Of a stretch of 5,062 nucleotides of DNA, positions 1 through 5,062 are shown piece by piece. Both the position numbers and the translations under genes were made by a program. This DNA comes from a virus (taxonomy: Duplodnaviria > Heunggongvirae > Uroviricota > Caudoviricetes), in IMG/VR virus record IMGVR_UViG_2698536505_000003. One strand, 5' to 3'. The notes beneath the pieces were generated by a model. That model did no database searches. It was given only the letters and a program-made list of their open reading frames with translations, and was not told the origin of the DNA. Within the stretch, counting starts at the first letter, position 1; each line of letters opens with the position of its first letter.

Positions 1-101
1 AAATATCTTTCCCCCTCCGGCGTGCTTACCACGAAGCCGCACGACTCCGCTGGCGCACATCGCCGGGCGTGCGCCAGAATCGCTGATTCTGTCTGTGTCA
101 T
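1..101 (-). CDS. K: Minor tail (tail-tip assembly) protein K, N-terminal 33 codons only; the gene continues beyond the left edge of the window
   Basis: Reverse complement from the ATG at 101..99 translates to MTQTESAILAHARRCAPAESCGFVVSTPEGERY, which I recognise as the N-terminus of lambda gpK. It lies 5 bp downstream of the L stop, in the lambda gene order H-M-L-K. Too short to appear in the ORF track. Confidence 0.8.
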   Translation of the reverse strand, partial: MTQTESAILAHARRCAPAESCGFVVSTPEGERY

Positions 102-106
102 GGGAT

Positions 107-805
107 TTACTGCGAAAGTTTGTTAATGGAAAGGAAGCCGCCAAAGTTGCCGACGTTATTGCGGAACTTACAACCGCTCAGGCATTTGCTGCATTTATCC
201 TTCGTGATATCGGACGTTGGCTGGTCATATTCATCCGCGACAGCCGGACCGCTATAACCGCACTCGTCACCGCGATAGGTCCAGGTGCAGGTGTTGGCCA
301 GCATGATACGTCCCGGAAAAACAGCGCCATCCGTTTCCGTCGGCGTGGACAGTACAAAGGAGGCACTCACCGCGCTCAGTTCGCTGCACTGCTCAATGCG
401 CCAGCGGCTGATCACCTCCTGCTCCGGATCGGCATAACTGTTTCCGTTGACGAAGTTCACCGCATCCAGAAAACGGGCGTAAACCTTACGCCGGACCACC
501 GTTCCGCCGACCAGACTCTGCATATCTTCCGCCATCCCGGTGACCATACCGTACAGGTTAGAAACCGTCAGCGTGGGGCGCGTACTGGTGCCTTTGCCAT
601 TCAGTTCAAAACCGCTCCCCTGAATGGGATACGGCTGATACTGTCGCCCCTGCCAGGTGACCGGCTCACCTTTTTCGTTCTGCTCATTACAGAAAAAATA
701 ACGTTCTCCACCGACCTCTGTCAGGTCGATTTCCCAGAGCACCACGCTGGCCGACTGCTCCGCACGGGTGCATTCATTCAGTGTTTCCTGCCGGATATCC
801 TGCAT
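107..805 (-). CDS. L: Minor tail protein L (tail-tip complex), intact, 232 aa
   Basis: ORF track 107..805 (-), 232 aa, MQDIRQETLNECTRAEQ...FLSINKLSQ, matching lambda gpL in length and sequence as I recall it. The start ATG shares one nucleotide with the M stop (TGATG on the minus strand). The C-terminal half carries the Cys cluster (C173, C182, C205, C208, C212). Confidence 0.9.
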   Translation of the reverse strand: MQDIRQETLNECTRAEQSASVVLWEIDLTEVGGERYFFCNEQNEKGEPVTWQGRQYQPYPIQGSGFELNGKGTSTRPTLTVSNLYGMVTGMAEDMQSLVGGTVVRRKVYARFLDAVNFVNGNSYADPEQEVISRWRIEQCSELSAVSASFVLSTPTETDGAVFPGRIMLANTCTWTYRGDECGYSGPAVADEYDQPTSDITKDKCSKCLSGCKFRNNVGNFGGFLSINKLSQ

Positions 806-1134
806 CAGTTCACCACCTGTTCAAACTCTGCGCTGAACTCAACACGCAGCATACTGACCCGCGACGACCATTTTGCGCAGGTCACCTTTATCTGCCGCCA
901 CTCATAAGGCGGCGTCCACAGAAAGGATTTCCAGCCCCCGTGCTCTTCCAGAAACGACTCCAGTACCGTGGCCTCCTCACGGGGGACAGAAAGCGTCACG
1001 CTGTACGTTTTCAGGTTGGCATTCAGCCCGGCAGGCGCTCGCTGAGAATAGCCATCACCAAAGCGCACCTTTCTTACAGAAGGGACCGAAGCCACATCCA
1101 TACCGGGTTTCACTTTCCAGCGGAAGGTCTTCAT
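805..1134 (-). CDS. M: Minor tail protein M, intact, 109 aa (copy proximal to the intact L)
   Basis: ORF track 805..1134 (-), MKTFRWKVKPGMDVASVPSV...EFSAEFEQVVN, matching lambda gpM in length and sequence as recalled. Its start overlaps the stop of the upstream H-derived frame (ATGA). Confidence 0.9.
   Translation of the reverse strand: MKTFRWKVKPGMDVASVPSVRKVRFGDGYSQRAPAGLNANLKTYSVTLSVPREEATVLESFLEEHGGWKSFLWTPPYEWRQIKVTCAKWSSRVSMLRVEFSAEFEQVVN
811..818 (-). promoter_or_regulatory. Shine-Dalgarno-like site for L (AGGTGGTG on the minus strand, 5 nt before the ATG)
   Basis: Reverse complement of 806..820 is ACAGGTGGTGAACTG followed by ATG at 805..803. The same motif recurs at 3314..3321 before the truncated L copy. 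Confidence 0.5.
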
Positions 1135-1808
1135 CGTCCACCTCCGGAGAACAGGCCACCATCACGCATCTGTGTCTGAATTTCATCACGGGCACCCTTG
1201 CGGGCCATGTCATACACCGCCTTCAGAGCAGCCGGACCTATCTGCCCGTTCGTGCCGTCGTTGTTAATCACCACATGGTTATTCTGCTCAAACGTCCCGG
1301 ACGCCTGCGACCGGCTGTCTGCCATGCTGCCCGGTGTACCGACATAACCGCCGGTGGCATAGCCGCGCATCAGCCGGTAAAGATTCCCCACGCCAATCCG
1401 GCTGGTTGCCTCCTTCGTGAAGACAAACTCACCACGGTGAACAATCCCCGCTGGCTCATATTTGCCGCCGGTTCCCGTAAATCCTCCGGTTGCAAAATGG
1501 AATTTCGCCGCAGCGGCCTGAATGGCTGTACCGCCTGACGCGGATGCTCCACCACTGGCAGCACCGCCAATGGCGCTGCCGATACTCCCGACAATCCCCA
1601 CCATTGCCTGCTTAAGCAGAATTTCTGTCATCATGGACAGCACGGAACGGGTGAAGCTGCGCCAGTTCTGCTCACTGCCGGTCAGCATCGCCGCCATATT
1701 TTGTGCAATACCATCAAAGGTCTGCGTGGCTGCACTTTTAACCTGCGACATACTGTCCGTGGCGCTCTCTTCCCACTCACTCCAGCCGGACTTCAGGCCT
1801 GCCATCCA
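1131..1808 (-). pseudogene. H: Orphan 3' fragment of tape-measure gene H (last 225 codons plus stop), duplicated copy without its own N-terminus
   Basis: The H frame WMAGLKSGWSEWEES...RDGGLFSGGGR* runs from the junction at 1809|1810 to the stop at 1131..1133. The ORF track extends it to 1862 only by reading out of frame across M-derived sequence (GTG start, MAADKGDLRKMVVAGQYV). Carries the variant Gly-rich patch GGAASGG. Confidence 0.75.
1141..1145 (-). promoter_or_regulatory. Shine-Dalgarno for M (GGAGG, 6-nt spacer), embedded in the 3' end of the H frame
   Basis: Reverse complement of 1131..1145 is GGAGGTGGACGATGA. Identical sites lie at 2102..2106 and 3644..3648 before the other M copies. 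Confidence 0.55.
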
Positions 1809-2095
1809 GACATACTGACCCGCGACGACCATTTTGCGCAGGTCACCTTTATCTGCCGCCACTCATAAGGCGGCGTCCACAGAAAGGATTTCCAGCCCCC
1901 GTGCTCTTCCAGAAACGACTCCAGTACCGTGGCCTCCTCACGGGGGACAGAAAGCGTCACGCTGTACGTTTTCAGGTTGGCATTCAGCCCGGCAGGCGCT
2001 CGCTGAGAATAGCCATCACCAAAGCGCACCTTTCTTACAGAAGGGACCGAAGCCACATCCATACCGGGTTTCACTTTCCAGCGGAAGGTCTTCAT
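1793..2095 (-). pseudogene. M: Duplicated M copy with replaced C-terminus: M residues 1-95 fused to SGWQA* (loses the last 14 aa of gpM)
   Basis: ORF track 1793..2095 (-), 100 aa. Identical to M through ...KWSSRVSM (codon 95 at 1811..1813), then crosses the junction at 1809|1810 into H-derived DNA out of frame. Confidence 0.8.
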
Positions 2096-2938
2096 CGTCC
2101 ACCTCCGGAGAACAGGCCACCATCACGCATCTGTGTCTGAATTTCATCACGGGCACCCTTGCGGGCCATGTCATACACCGCCTTCAGAGCAGCCGGACCT
2201 ATCTGCCCGTTCGTGCCGTCGTTGTTAATCACCACATGGTTATTCTGCTCAAACGTCCCGGACGCCTGCGACCGGCTGTCTGCCATGCTGCCCGGTGTAC
2301 CGACATAACCGCCGGTGGCATAGCCGCGCATCAGCCGGTAAAGATTCCCCACGCCAATCCGGCTGGTTGCCTCCTTCGTGAAGACAAACTCACCACGGTG
2401 AACAATCCCCGCTGGCTCATATTTGCCGCCGGTTCCCGTAAATCCTCCGGTTGCAAAATGGAATTTCGCCGCAGCGGCCTGAATGGCTGTACCGCCTGAC
2501 GCGGATGCGCCGCCACCAACAGCCCCGCCAATGGCGCTGCCGATACTCCCGACAATCCCCACCATTGCCTGCTTAAGCAGAATTTCTGTCATCATGGACA
2601 GCACGGAACGGGTGAAGCTGCGCCAGTTCTGCTCACTGCCGGTCAGCATCGCCGCCATATTTTGTGCAATACCATCAAAGGTCTGCGTGGCTGCACTTTT
2701 AACCTGCGACATACTGTCCGTGGCGCTCTCTTCCCACTCACTCCAGCCGGACTTCAGGCCTGCCATCCAGCTCCCGCGAAGCTGGTCTTCAGCCGCCCAG
2801 GTCTTTTTCTGCTCTGACATGACGTTATTCAGCGCCAGCGGATTATCGCCATACTGTTCCTTCAGGCGCTGTTCCGTGGCTTCCCGTTCTGCCTGCCGGT
2901 CAGTCAGCCCCCGGCTTTTCGCATCAATGGCGGCCCAT
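1810..2938. repeat. Inserted duplicate segment, 1129 bp, colinear with 3352..4480 (offset 1542); its first 961 bp are also copy 2 of the 961-bp unit
   Basis: Bounded by the two junctions (1809|1810 and 2936..2938). I found 3 mismatches to 3352..4480, at 2662, 2701 and 2771. Confidence 0.85.
2092..2937 (-). pseudogene. H: Orphan 3' fragment of tape-measure gene H (last 281 codons plus stop), second duplicated copy
   Basis: The H frame WAAIDAKSRGLTDRQ...GGLFSGGGR* runs from junction codon 2935..2937 to the stop at 2092..2094. The ORF track shows the part from internal Met 2820 (242 aa). No SD precedes that Met, and the upstream truncated-L frame terminates at 2904 in a different frame. Confidence 0.75.
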
Positions 2939-3308
2939 AACTGTTTCCGTTGACGAAGTTCACCGCATCCAGAAAACGGGCGTAAACCTTACGCCGGACC
3001 ACCGTTCCGCCGACCAGACTCTGCATATCTTCCGCCATCCCGGTGACCATACCGTACAGGTTAGAAACCGTCAGCGTGGGGCGCGTACTGGTGCCTTTGC
3101 CATTCAGTTCAAAACCGCTCCCCTGAATGGGATACGGCTGATACTGTCGCCCCTGCCAGGTGACCGGCTCACCTTTTTCGTTCTGCTCATTACAGAAAAA
3201 ATAACGTTCTCCACCGACCTCTGTCAGGTCGATTTCCCAGAGCACCACGCTGGCCGACTGCTCCGCACGGGTGCATTCATTCAGTGTTTCCTGCCGGATA
3301 TCCTGCAT
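2904..3308 (-). pseudogene. L: Truncated duplicate of L: residues 1-124 followed by 10 aa (GPPLMRKAGG) read out of frame from H-derived DNA
   Basis: ORF track 2904..3308 (-), 134 aa. Identical to intact L through ...NFVNGNSY, then diverges at the junction 2936..2938. Lacks the whole C-terminal Cys-rich half of gpL. Confidence 0.8.
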
Positions 3309-4480
3309 CAGTTCACCACCTGTTCAAACTCTGCGCTGAACTCAACACGCAACATACTGACCCGCGACGACCATTTTGCGCAGGTCACCTTTATCTGCCG
3401 CCACTCATAAGGCGGCGTCCACAGAAAGGATTTCCAGCCCCCGTGCTCTTCCAGAAACGACTCCAGTACCGTGGCCTCCTCACGGGGGACAGAAAGCGTC
3501 ACGCTGTACGTTTTCAGGTTGGCATTCAGCCCGGCAGGCGCTCGCTGAGAATAGCCATCACCAAAGCGCACCTTTCTTACAGAAGGGACCGAAGCCACAT
3601 CCATACCGGGTTTCACTTTCCAGCGGAAGGTCTTCATCGTCCACCTCCGGAGAACAGGCCACCATCACGCATCTGTGTCTGAATTTCATCACGGGCACCC
3701 TTGCGGGCCATGTCATACACCGCCTTCAGAGCAGCCGGACCTATCTGCCCGTTCGTGCCGTCGTTGTTAATCACCACATGGTTATTCTGCTCAAACGTCC
3801 CGGACGCCTGCGACCGGCTGTCTGCCATGCTGCCCGGTGTACCGACATAACCGCCGGTGGCATAGCCGCGCATCAGCCGGTAAAGATTCCCCACGCCAAT
3901 CCGGCTGGTTGCCTCCTTCGTGAAGACAAACTCACCACGGTGAACAATCCCCGCTGGCTCATATTTGCCGCCGGTTCCCGTAAATCCTCCGGTTGCAAAA
4001 TGGAATTTCGCCGCAGCGGCCTGAATGGCTGTACCGCCTGACGCGGATGCGCCGCCACCAACAGCCCCGCCAATGGCGCTGCCGATACTCCCGACAATCC
4101 CCACCATTGCCTGCTTAAGCAGAATTTCTGTCATCATGGACAGCACGGAACGGGTGAAGCTGCGCCAGTTCTGCTCACTGCCGGTCAGCATCGCCGCCAT
4201 ATTCTGTGCAATACCATCAAAGGTCTGCGTGGCTGCACTTTTTACCTGCGACATACTGTCCGTGGCGCTCTCTTCCCACTCACTCCAGCCGGACTTCAGG
4301 CCTGCCATCCAGTTCCCGCGAAGCTGGTCTTCAGCCGCCCAGGTCTTTTTCTGCTCTGACATGACGTTATTCAGCGCCAGCGGATTATCGCCATACTGTT
4401 CCTTCAGGCGCTGTTCCGTGGCTTCCCGTTCTGCCTGCCGGTCAGTCAGCCCCCGGCTTTTCGCATCAATGGCGGCCCAT
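2939..4480. repeat. Distal copy of a 1542-bp tandem duplication (3' half of L through the H 3' region); 2939..4312 is colinear with 436..1809 (offset 2503)
   Basis: The L, M and H translations are identical between the two blocks except at the variant positions. At least 9 mismatches found between 436..1809 and 2939..4312. Confidence 0.85.
3308..3637 (-). CDS. M: Minor tail protein M, intact, 109 aa (copy directly downstream of the full-length H)
   Basis: ORF track 3308..3637 (-), protein identical to the 805..1134 copy. One synonymous difference (3352 a vs 849 g). ATGA overlap with the H stop, and GGAGG at 3644..3648. Confidence 0.9.
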   Translation of the reverse strand: MKTFRWKVKPGMDVASVPSVRKVRFGDGYSQRAPAGLNANLKTYSVTLSVPREEATVLESFLEEHGGWKSFLWTPPYEWRQIKVTCAKWSSRVSMLRVEFSAEFEQVVN

Positions 4481-5062
4481 TTTGCCCGTTGCTGCTGTGC
4501 GAATTTATCCGCCTGCTGCGCCAGCGCGTTCAGGCGCTCCTGATACGTAACCTTGTCGCCAAGTGCAGCCAGCTGGCGTTTGTACTCCAGCGTCTCATCT
4601 TTATGCGCCAGCAGGGATTTCTCCTGTGCAGACAGCTGGCGACGTTGCGCCGCCTCCTCCAGTACCGCGAACTGACTCTCCGCCTTCCACAAATCCCGGC
4701 GCTGCTGGCTGATTTTCTCATTCGCTCCGGCATGCTTCTCCAGCGTCCGGAGTTCTGCCTGAAGCGTCAGCAGGGCAGCATGAGCACTGTCTTCCTGACG
4801 ATCGCCCGCAGACACCTTCACGCCGGACTGTTTCGGCTTTTTCAGCGTCGCTTCATAATCCTTTTTCGCCGCCGCCATCAGCGTGTTGTAATCCGCCTGC
4901 AGGATTTTCCCGTCTTTCAGTGCCTTGTTCAGTTCTTCCTGACGGGCGGTATATTTCTCCAGCGGCGTCTGCAGCCGTTCGTAAGCCTTCTGCGCCTCTT
5001 CGGTATATTTCAGCCGTGACGCTTCGGTATCGCTCTGCTGCTGCGCATTTTTGTCCTGTTGA
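3634..5062 (-). CDS. H: Tail tape-measure protein H, C-terminal 475 codons; the frame is open to the right edge, so the N-terminus lies outside the window
   Basis: ORF track 3634..4878 (414 aa from an internal Met). My hand translation of 4879..5061 continues the same frame without a stop (...RLQTPLEKYTARQEELNKALKDGKILQADYNTLMAAAKKDYEAT...). Q/A/E/K/R-rich coiled-coil-like region, then a Gly-rich segment and the C-terminus GGLFSGGGR, as in lambda gpH. Confidence 0.9.
   Translation of the reverse strand, partial: QQDKNAQQQSDTEASRLKYTEEAQKAYERLQTPLEKYTARQEELNKALKDGKILQADYNTLMAAAKKDYEATLKKPKQSGVKVSAGDRQEDSAHAALLTLQAELRTLEKHAGANEKISQQRRDLWKAESQFAVLEEAAQRRQLSAQEKSLLAHKDETLEYKRQLAALGDKVTYQERLNALAQQADKFAQQQRAKWAAIDAKSRGLTDRQAEREATEQRLKEQYGDNPLALNNVMSEQKKTWAAEDQLRGNWMAGLKSGWSEWEESATDSMSQVKSAATQTFDGIAQNMAAMLTGSEQNWRSFTRSVLSMMTEILLKQAMVGIVGSIGSAIGGAVGGGASASGGTAIQAAAAKFHFATGGFTGTGGKYEPAGIVHRGEFVFTKEATSRIGVGNLYRLMRGYATGGYVGTPGSMADSRSQASGTFEQNNHVVINNDGTNGQIGPAALKAVYDMARKGARDEIQTQMRDGGLFSGGGR

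Follow-up and report, generated by a model that had tools for sequence, protein, structure and literature searches.

The 5,062-bp stretch of DNA analysed here (the window) consists of one lambda-type L-M-H tail-gene locus of 2,559 bp, represented by three overlapping pieces. It is probably a false duplication that arose when haplotype contigs bounded by SNPs and drawn from at least three alleles were strung together. The apparent repeat copies are most likely three natural versions of one such locus that were placed head to tail by assembly, and we consider it probable that the window is a complete contig without real duplication. A sequence-only reading of the same DNA had seen in the differences among the copies a conflict with the order of duplication, and had proposed repeated gene conversion, an older duplication with patchy homogenisation, or an assembly chimera of several prophage alleles. 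This mosaic interpretation is partly supported by our analysis. The chimera alternative fits best, as the variants are standing alleles and the piece ends lie on SNPs, whereas the older duplication with homogenisation is contradicted.

Results

Three overlapping pieces of one tail-gene locus

The length of the window equals that of the single-copy locus plus 1,542 and 961 bp, which are the offsets of the repeats, and the pieces are in direct, head-to-tail orientation with two non-homologous junctions between them (Table 1). Positions in the 2,559-bp single-copy locus are given as u coordinates. From piece to piece, the rightward reach along the locus grows (1809 < 1975 < 2559). The window is 99.7% identical to positions 11675-14233 of phage lambda (J02459), where genes H, M and L are annotated, and it has the gene order, the overlapping stop and start codons and the Pfam families (PF09718, PF05939, PF05100) of a lambda-type H-M-L tail module. 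All ORFs with Pfam matches in the window encode tail proteins. Tandem Repeats Finder reported no repeats in the window because the repeat periods exceed 500.

Table 1. Features of the window. Positions are window coordinates unless marked u.
Feature	Position	Strand	Description
Piece 1	1..1809		u1-1809; L, M and C-terminal part of H; allele type 434A, 849G, variant patch, 1701T, 1740A
Piece 2	1810..2935		u849/850 to u1974 (u1975 with the shared C)
Piece 3	2936..5062		u433-2559 (or u434/435-2559); allele type 849A, reference patch, 1701C, 1740T, 1810T, 1976A, 2220C, 2321C
Junction A	1809..1810		H u1809 joined to M u849; blunt, microhomology absent; GGCCTGCCATCCAGACATACTGACCCGCGACG
Junction B	2936..2938		H joined to L via 3-nt overlap CAT; CAATGGCGGCCCATAACTGTTTCCGTTGACG
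SNPs at piece termini			u0 (A/G), u1810 (C/T), u849 (G/A), u1976 (G/A), u434 (G/A/T), u2560 (G/C)
L, intact	107..805	-	232 aa, Phage_tail_L
M copy 1, intact	805..1134	-	109 aa, Phage_min_tail
H C-terminal fragment	1131..1809	-	residue 628 to stop; without its own start codon
Variant patch	1548..1563		six substitutions (1548, 1551, 1556, 1557, 1558, 1563); H 712-713 Ala-Ser instead of Val-Gly
Truncated M' across junction A	1793..2095	-	95 aa of M plus 5 out-of-frame residues
H C-terminal fragment	2092..2935	-	about residue 573 to stop; internal ATG at 2820 gives a 242-aa ORF
Truncated L' across junction B	2904..3308	-	124 aa of L plus 10 out-of-frame residues
M copy 3, intact	3308..3637	-	
H (tape measure) C-terminal part	3634..5062	-	continues past the window end

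Of the three H copies, two are fragments truncated at the N terminus, and the fusions at junctions A and B are both out of frame. The argument that mostly synonymous changes show the intact frames to have been preserved therefore fails, and synonymy would be no proof of frame preservation here because selection had already filtered the alleles in the donor phages. The accompanying count of four synonymous sites out of five was also imprecise: the changes at 849, 1701 and 1740 are indeed synonymous, whereas that at 1810 is nonsynonymous and the patch carries Ala712Val and Ser713Gly. The 242-aa ORF in the second H fragment also occurs in other contigs, where it is an artefact of draft contigs beginning within H.

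Differences between copies are standing natural alleles

Over the common 961 bp, copies 1 and 2 differ at 7 positions, copies 2 and 3 at 2, and copies 1 and 3 at 9; the copies differ at 10 positions in all. The bases reported previously are correct at 1701/2662/4204 (T/T/C), at 1740/2701/4243 (A/A/T) and at 2771/4313 (C/T, RGSW versus RGNW), the last giving Ser or Asn at H residue 628. The bases at 849/1810/3352 (G/A/A) are likewise as described, although their treatment as an ordinary repeat position does not stand, as 1810 is the junction base itself. Copy 1 is unique at the H patch, as had been noted, and copies 2 and 3 are identical there, with the lambda-type state at the equivalent positions 2509-2524 and 4051-4066. 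The patch changes (T/G, A/G, T/C, G/A, G/A, A/C) comprise three synonymous Gly changes in addition to the two amino acid replacements. No strict phylogenetic incompatibility follows from these sites, contrary to the proposed conflict with the duplication order: a comparison of only three copies makes each variable site a singleton, and no state is private to copy 2. The event count is 2 for copy 1 versus 1-2 for copy 3, and the apparent conflict arises only against an assumed duplication order and clock.

Every difference between copies is a standing allele in natural lambda-like prophages, and there are no private substitutions across the 5,062 bp. Piece 2 matches the prophage allele of E. 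coli B19374 throughout (100% identity, 0 mismatches), the segment 849-1809 shows 100% identity with E. coli TB354, and the allele nearest to piece 3 is that of 2018-01-1CC. Neither piece 1 nor piece 3 was found intact in any database allele, with best matches of 2 mismatches each; an origin by assembly would then require each of them to be a rare haplotype or to carry phasing switch errors. A set of 20 natural alleles suffices to reconstruct pieces 1, 2 and 3 with 1, 0 and 2 switches, respectively, and leaves 0 private bases. The variant patch is itself natural, being present in 5 complete E. coli genomes and 35 IMG/VR contigs. Its 16 nt are native to an H lineage that is about 5% divergent, and they lie here in a lambda-like background. 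The block from 1564 to 4203 is entirely of B19374 type, with copy 1 differing only at the left and copy 3 only at the right. The differences form two tracts made of standing alleles, a pattern that fits conversion and three separate alleles equally well. Matching places number a median of 2 and a maximum of 13 per E. coli genome, indicating that multiple alleles in one sample are normal.

Piece ends coincide with SNP sites

All six piece termini (the two ends of the window and the two sides of each junction) directly adjoin natural SNP positions. Piece 1 begins just after SNP u0 and stops just before SNP u1810, and piece 3 stops just before SNP u2560. The joint probability of six termini at SNPs depends on the panel: it is ~1e-11 for the 11 closest natural alleles, ~1e-7 for a set of 23 and ~7e-5 when all 52 loci are included. 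For the four junction sides alone it is ~7e-8 in the close panel. In a control comparison, draft contigs of this locus from NCBI likewise stop immediately before SNPs, three of them (L013, L014 and L016) ending at u1861, which adjoins SNP 1862, and another (L017) at u1877, which adjoins SNP 1878. The pieces have the marks of a chimera, in that they overlap in u coordinates, carry distinct natural alleles and terminate at variant sites. A tandem duplication formed in vivo would place its junctions independently of population variant sites or assembly forks, and this is not what we observe.

The junction bases lie on SNPs in both registers. Read in the register of piece 1, base 1810 falls on SNP u1810, and read in that of piece 2 it falls on SNP u849. 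Base 2937, the middle of the CAT overlap, falls on SNP u1976 of H in one register and on SNP u434 of L in the other. Both bases are A and both are also legitimate natural alleles, so that the junction bases alone do not reveal a filler base. The direct orientation of the three pieces and the 0-3-nt junctions are equally expected of a real tandem duplication.

The junctions are absent from the collections searched

Neither junction A nor junction B was present in 5,426 complete E. coli genomes (junction BLAST), in phage and plasmid records queried with the whole window, or in pattern scans of GTDB representatives, IMG/VR and JGI metagenomes. The exact products of the junction ORFs had no match in an index of 153 billion genes, and a search of 5.8 billion proteins with the L' fusion returned no 134-aa relative. 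The sole full-coverage match to that fusion (P0012) was rejected because it is simply L with a frameshift. The literature was also searched for tandem duplications affecting tail or tape-measure genes of lambda, with no relevant result.

Discussion

Our results suggest a route by which the window could have been assembled. The sample would have held at least three near-identical lambda-like alleles, either in a polylysogenic E. coli or in a mixture of strains or phages. Graph-based assembly may have broken the locus at variant sites that acted as forks, and a later joining step, such as scaffolding or greedy extension, would then have added each next piece whole, without overlapping it. Such an extra step must be assumed because standard de Bruijn contigs cannot hold non-overlapping joins. 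We infer this assembly mechanism, and with it that the junctions lack read support, whereas the anatomy of the window, its natural alleles without private substitutions, the termini at SNPs and the absence of the junctions from the collections searched are observed. The copy differences would then be true allele differences between separate loci or genomes, and the reticulate pattern would stem from population-level homologous recombination among lambdoid phages and not from gene conversion inside an array.

The foremost competitor, which we regard as unlikely, is that a B19374-like prophage underwent real, nested tandem duplication. Illegitimate recombination would have formed a 1,542-bp unit and then a 961-bp unit inside its first copy, and homologous recombination with other lambdoid alleles would later have exchanged the outer portions of copy 1 (849-1563) and copy 3 (u1701-1976). 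Tandem repeats of 1-1.5 kb are lost far faster than ectopic conversion happens, which counts against such a history. Head-to-tail direct repeats with a novel junction, as expected of tandem duplication in vivo, are present in the window, and the junction microhomology of 0-3 nt is in keeping with this origin. Flank replacement also predicts that copy 1 differs only at the left and copy 3 only at the right, the B19374-type centre (1564-4203) and the lack of a private state in copy 2 speak for this history as well, and Red/Rad52-like recombination readily yields lambdoid mosaics of this kind (PMC2327257, PMC3945230). However, a nested duplication gives no reason for junction sides and contig ends to lie exactly on natural SNPs, and it must reconcile zero private substitutions with time enough for two ectopic exchanges. 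Its junctions were, in addition, found nowhere else in the collections searched. The same coincidence with SNPs bears on the gene conversion that had been proposed previously. Conversion with outside homologues fits the allele evidence but leaves the junctions sitting on SNPs unexplained, whereas conversion between the copies would homogenise them, and they differ.

Far less probable is a single replication episode in vivo with two backward template switches (MMBIR-like), in which three co-resident alleles of lambdoid prophages were copied in turn and a mismatch at the nascent end set off each switch. The pieces correspond to contiguous stretches of different natural alleles, the donor ends stop just before SNPs, and polylysogeny is common, all of which agree with template switching. 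Mismatch-triggered dissociation would explain the donor ends, but not the acceptor SNP sites u849 and u434 or the contig ends; moreover, no earlier case was retrieved, and the window alone carries the junctions. We give a similarly slight chance to the broader possibility of a real in vivo array, made by serial template switching or by mis-joined stalled recombination intermediates between three such co-resident alleles, in which mismatches set both the donor and the acceptor breakpoints.

With all variants being standing alleles and none private, sequencing error, new mutation and an old homogenised duplication are ruled out. That the differences are consensus errors or mutations that followed duplication is next to inconceivable, since, few as they are, all 10 positions show states of independent natural genomes, including the six-substitution patch. 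DGR-type mutagenesis was rejected, as the substitutions are not A-specific, the repeats span 1-1.5 kb and there is no reverse transcriptase; Chi-stimulated exchange was set aside for want of a Chi site on either strand, and inversion or shufflon systems because the window has no inverted repeats.

The false duplication that we favour resembles false haplotypic duplication in genome assemblies, in which overlapping pieces each carry a different allele, have their breaks at variant sites and follow one another in a single orientation with no true overlap at the joins. Such duplication is usually described for diploid eukaryote assemblies, whereas the 'haplotypes' here would be lambdoid prophages or strains in a bacterial sample. 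Phage lambda is also subject to spontaneous tandem duplications, which arise by illegitimate recombination. The window shares with these its direct, kilobase-scale repeats and novel junctions with little or no homology. However, spontaneous duplications begin with identical copies and have junctions independent of SNPs, in contrast to the three natural alleles and SNP-bounded junction sides seen here. Lambdoid genome mosaicism, which arises by homologous and homeologous recombination of the Red/Rad52-like type (PMC2327257, PMC3945230), explains why alleles of the locus show every SNP combination, together with a patch from the ~5% divergent H lineage. This mosaicism acts between separate phages, and the three pieces of the window need no such exchange among themselves.

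Were the duplication real, it would be a short-lived nested structure with no obvious function, holding one intact H, two M, one L and out-of-frame fragments. If the template-switch explanation were true, the window would directly record illegitimate joining set off by mismatches in the course of inter-prophage recombination. As a probable false duplication, the window illustrates that near-identical tail genes of lambdoid prophages are a classic assembly trap, and that such contigs risk being misread as tandem duplication, gene conversion or tape-measure evolution. Asking whether junctions and contig ends lie on population SNPs, and whether all variants are standing and none private, provides a reusable check that separates false from real duplications and requires no reads.

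Results

The window carries a lambda-type tail-gene region in reverse complement; its minus strand encodes L, M and the C-terminal portion of H, the tape-measure gene. When the window is compared with itself, three almost identical stretches emerge, offset by 961 and 1,542 bp, and in all public matches 2,559 bp of subject span the full 5,062-bp query (e.g. lambda J02459 11675-14233). It follows that a single-copy locus (u1-2559) is present here in three pieces, which carry copies 1, 2 and 3, and the lengths add up (2,559 + 961 + 1,542 = 5,062).

Pieces, junctions and differences between copies (u, single-copy locus coordinate)
Feature	Window	Locus	Overlap or bases	Coding effect
Piece 1	1-1809	u1-1809
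Piece 2	1810-2935	u849-1974 (end about u1974-1975)
Piece 3	2936-5062	u433-2559
Junction A	1809/1810	H u1809 to M u849	no microhomology	out of frame
Junction B	2936-2938	H to L	CAT, 3-nt overlap	out of frame
Variant 849	849/1810/3352	u849	G/A/A	synonymous in M (CTG/TTG)
Patch	1548, 1551, 1556-1558, 1563		six substitutions, private to copy 1	three synonymous Gly changes, Ala712Val, Ser713Gly
Variant 1701	1701/2662/4204	u1701	T/T/C	synonymous in H
Variant 1740	1740/2701/4243	u1740	A/A/T	synonymous in H
Variant 1810	2771/4313	u1810	C/T	non-synonymous, H residue 628 Ser/Asn

The fusions leave a truncated L (L', 124 + 10 aa) across junction B, a truncated M (M', 95 + 5 aa) across junction A, and two H fragments without N-termini. 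The junction-B trinucleotide is CAT at each of its three instances (window 434, 2937 and 4479); reference lambda has CGT at both u434 (L) and u1976 (H). At u1976 the A allele is uncommon, being carried by 1 of the 43 panel loci, yet it is present in at least eight complete genomes.

Searches for junctions A and B returned 0 records covering ≥80% of either query among 5,426 complete E. coli genomes, and neither was found in 50,697 phage and 72,556 plasmid records or in GTDB representative genomes, IMG/VR and JGI metagenomes. The junction ORFs had no match in the exact-protein index, and no relative of the 134-aa L' was found in the protein database. In P0001, a 208-aa E. coli protein from a draft contig, L residues 1-146 are followed by a gpG-like (PF06894) tail, a further unusual join in the lambda tail module and possibly another assembly chimera. 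The searches also returned ~48.5-kb records near-identical to lambda that are labelled as plasmids from Salmonella enterica, Stenotrophomonas maltophilia and Paenibacillus sonchi (hits H142, H143, H145), and a ~48.5-kb record essentially identical to lambda, "Campylobacter phage CJLB-4" (H44), all of which are probably lambda control-DNA contamination.

The bases quoted in the sequence-only reading were all correct when the window was re-read, and its count of four synonymous sites in five holds only approximately, given the replacements at u1810 and in the patch. Copy 2 has no private state, differing from copy 1 in one tract (849-1563) and from copy 3 in one tract (u1701-1976). The variant states are standing alleles found in nature. 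The E. coli B19374 prophage allele matches piece 2 at 100% identity, and E. coli TB354 matches window 849-1809 at 100%. At 1701, 1740 and 1810, T-A-C marks the B19374 type and C-T-T that of lambda; natural variation also includes 849 G/A, 434 G/A/T and 1976 G/A, and five complete genomes and 35 IMG/VR contigs carry the patch allele. Pieces 1 and 3 have no intact match among database alleles (two mismatches at best), and exact copying of pieces 1, 2 and 3 from a panel of 20 natural alleles takes 1, 0 and 2 switches with 0 private bases. In a leave-one-out control, natural alleles needed 1-3 switches or had private sites. Because the copies can be reproduced from natural alleles without a private base, sequencing error and post-duplication mutation are excluded as sources of the differences, as is the older, patchily homogenised duplication that had been proposed. 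The supposed conflict with the duplication order is likewise weakened by these natural states, and three copies can give singleton patterns only. Most likely, the copies differ as real alleles differ.

The decisive feature for a false duplication is the SNP position of every piece end. Directly before the window start lies natural SNP u0, where B19374 has A and lambda G, and directly after the window end lies natural SNP u2560 (G/C). Piece 1 ends directly before SNP u1810 and piece 2, at u1975, before SNP u1976; base 1810 is SNP u849 in the piece 2 register, and base 2937 is SNP u434 in that of piece 3. The chance of all six termini falling on SNPs varies with the allele panel, from about 1e-11 when the panel is limited to the 11 closest natural alleles, which have 41 SNPs in 3,361 bp, through about 1e-7 with 23 alleles to about 7e-5 with all 52 loci, 5%-divergent lineages included. 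Ends flush with variant sites are a product of graph-based assembly at forks. Illegitimate recombination in vivo would not be expected to follow population SNP positions on both donor and acceptor sides. As a positive control, three NCBI draft contigs of the L-M-H locus end at u1861 beside SNP 1862, and one at u1877 beside SNP 1878.

In many draft E. coli assemblies, contigs break within H at u1859-1891 (NCBI draft contigs L011-L017). On such contigs, gene callers start at an internal ATG and predict a spurious protein of 242 aa, "tape measure C-terminal", which appears in 55 blocks of the collection.

Discussion

We consider it likely that the window, a whole contig, consists of SNP-bounded haplotype paths of at least three lambda-like alleles laid head to tail, a false duplication. 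An assembly chimera of several prophage alleles, already suggested from sequence alone, is thus the reading we favour: all six termini lie on SNPs, the alleles are natural throughout, and the junctions were found nowhere else in the collections searched. A scaffolder or extender would have appended whole overlapping haplotype contigs, each reaching further right, and the right-hand reach of the pieces increases in this expected order (1809 < 1975 < 2559). The median number of matching places per E. coli genome is 2 and the maximum 13, and such polylysogeny makes samples with several lambda-like alleles normal. The reticulate pattern of the copies parallels the recombination that lambdoid phages undergo at the population level (PMC2327257, PMC3945230).

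The allele layout is also well matched by a real nested duplication of a B19374-like prophage locus with two later homologous exchanges at the outer flanks; the block in the centre, 1564-4203, is purely B19374 type. We nevertheless regard it as unlikely, since it leaves the SNP coincidence of the piece ends unexplained and an unstable array would have to persist through two ectopic exchanges and acquire no private mutation. One in vivo episode in which mismatches triggered template switching among three prophages is very improbable.

The patch is native to an H lineage that diverges by about 5%, and most patch-bearing IMG/VR contigs carry it within that lineage. Copy 1 is without the flanking markers of that lineage (u1428T, u1485C, u1491C), so the patch is a short-tract import already present in natural lambda-like alleles. 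In a few such alleles it stands as an isolated 16-nt island without the three markers. H residues 712-713 are Ala-Ser versus Val-Gly over window 1548-1563 (patch also in L018-L052). TB354 has two different prophages (L053, NZ_AP038814 3031246-3037446; and L003), each with the rare patch allele and 849G. An IS66-family element truncates one of these prophages just past L, and the H of that prophage diverges sharply after u1749, a natural mosaic boundary. In E. coli 14EC007 (L005), the patch-allele prophage has its tape-measure gene broken by IS1A from u2496 onward; the gene is annotated as a pseudogene.
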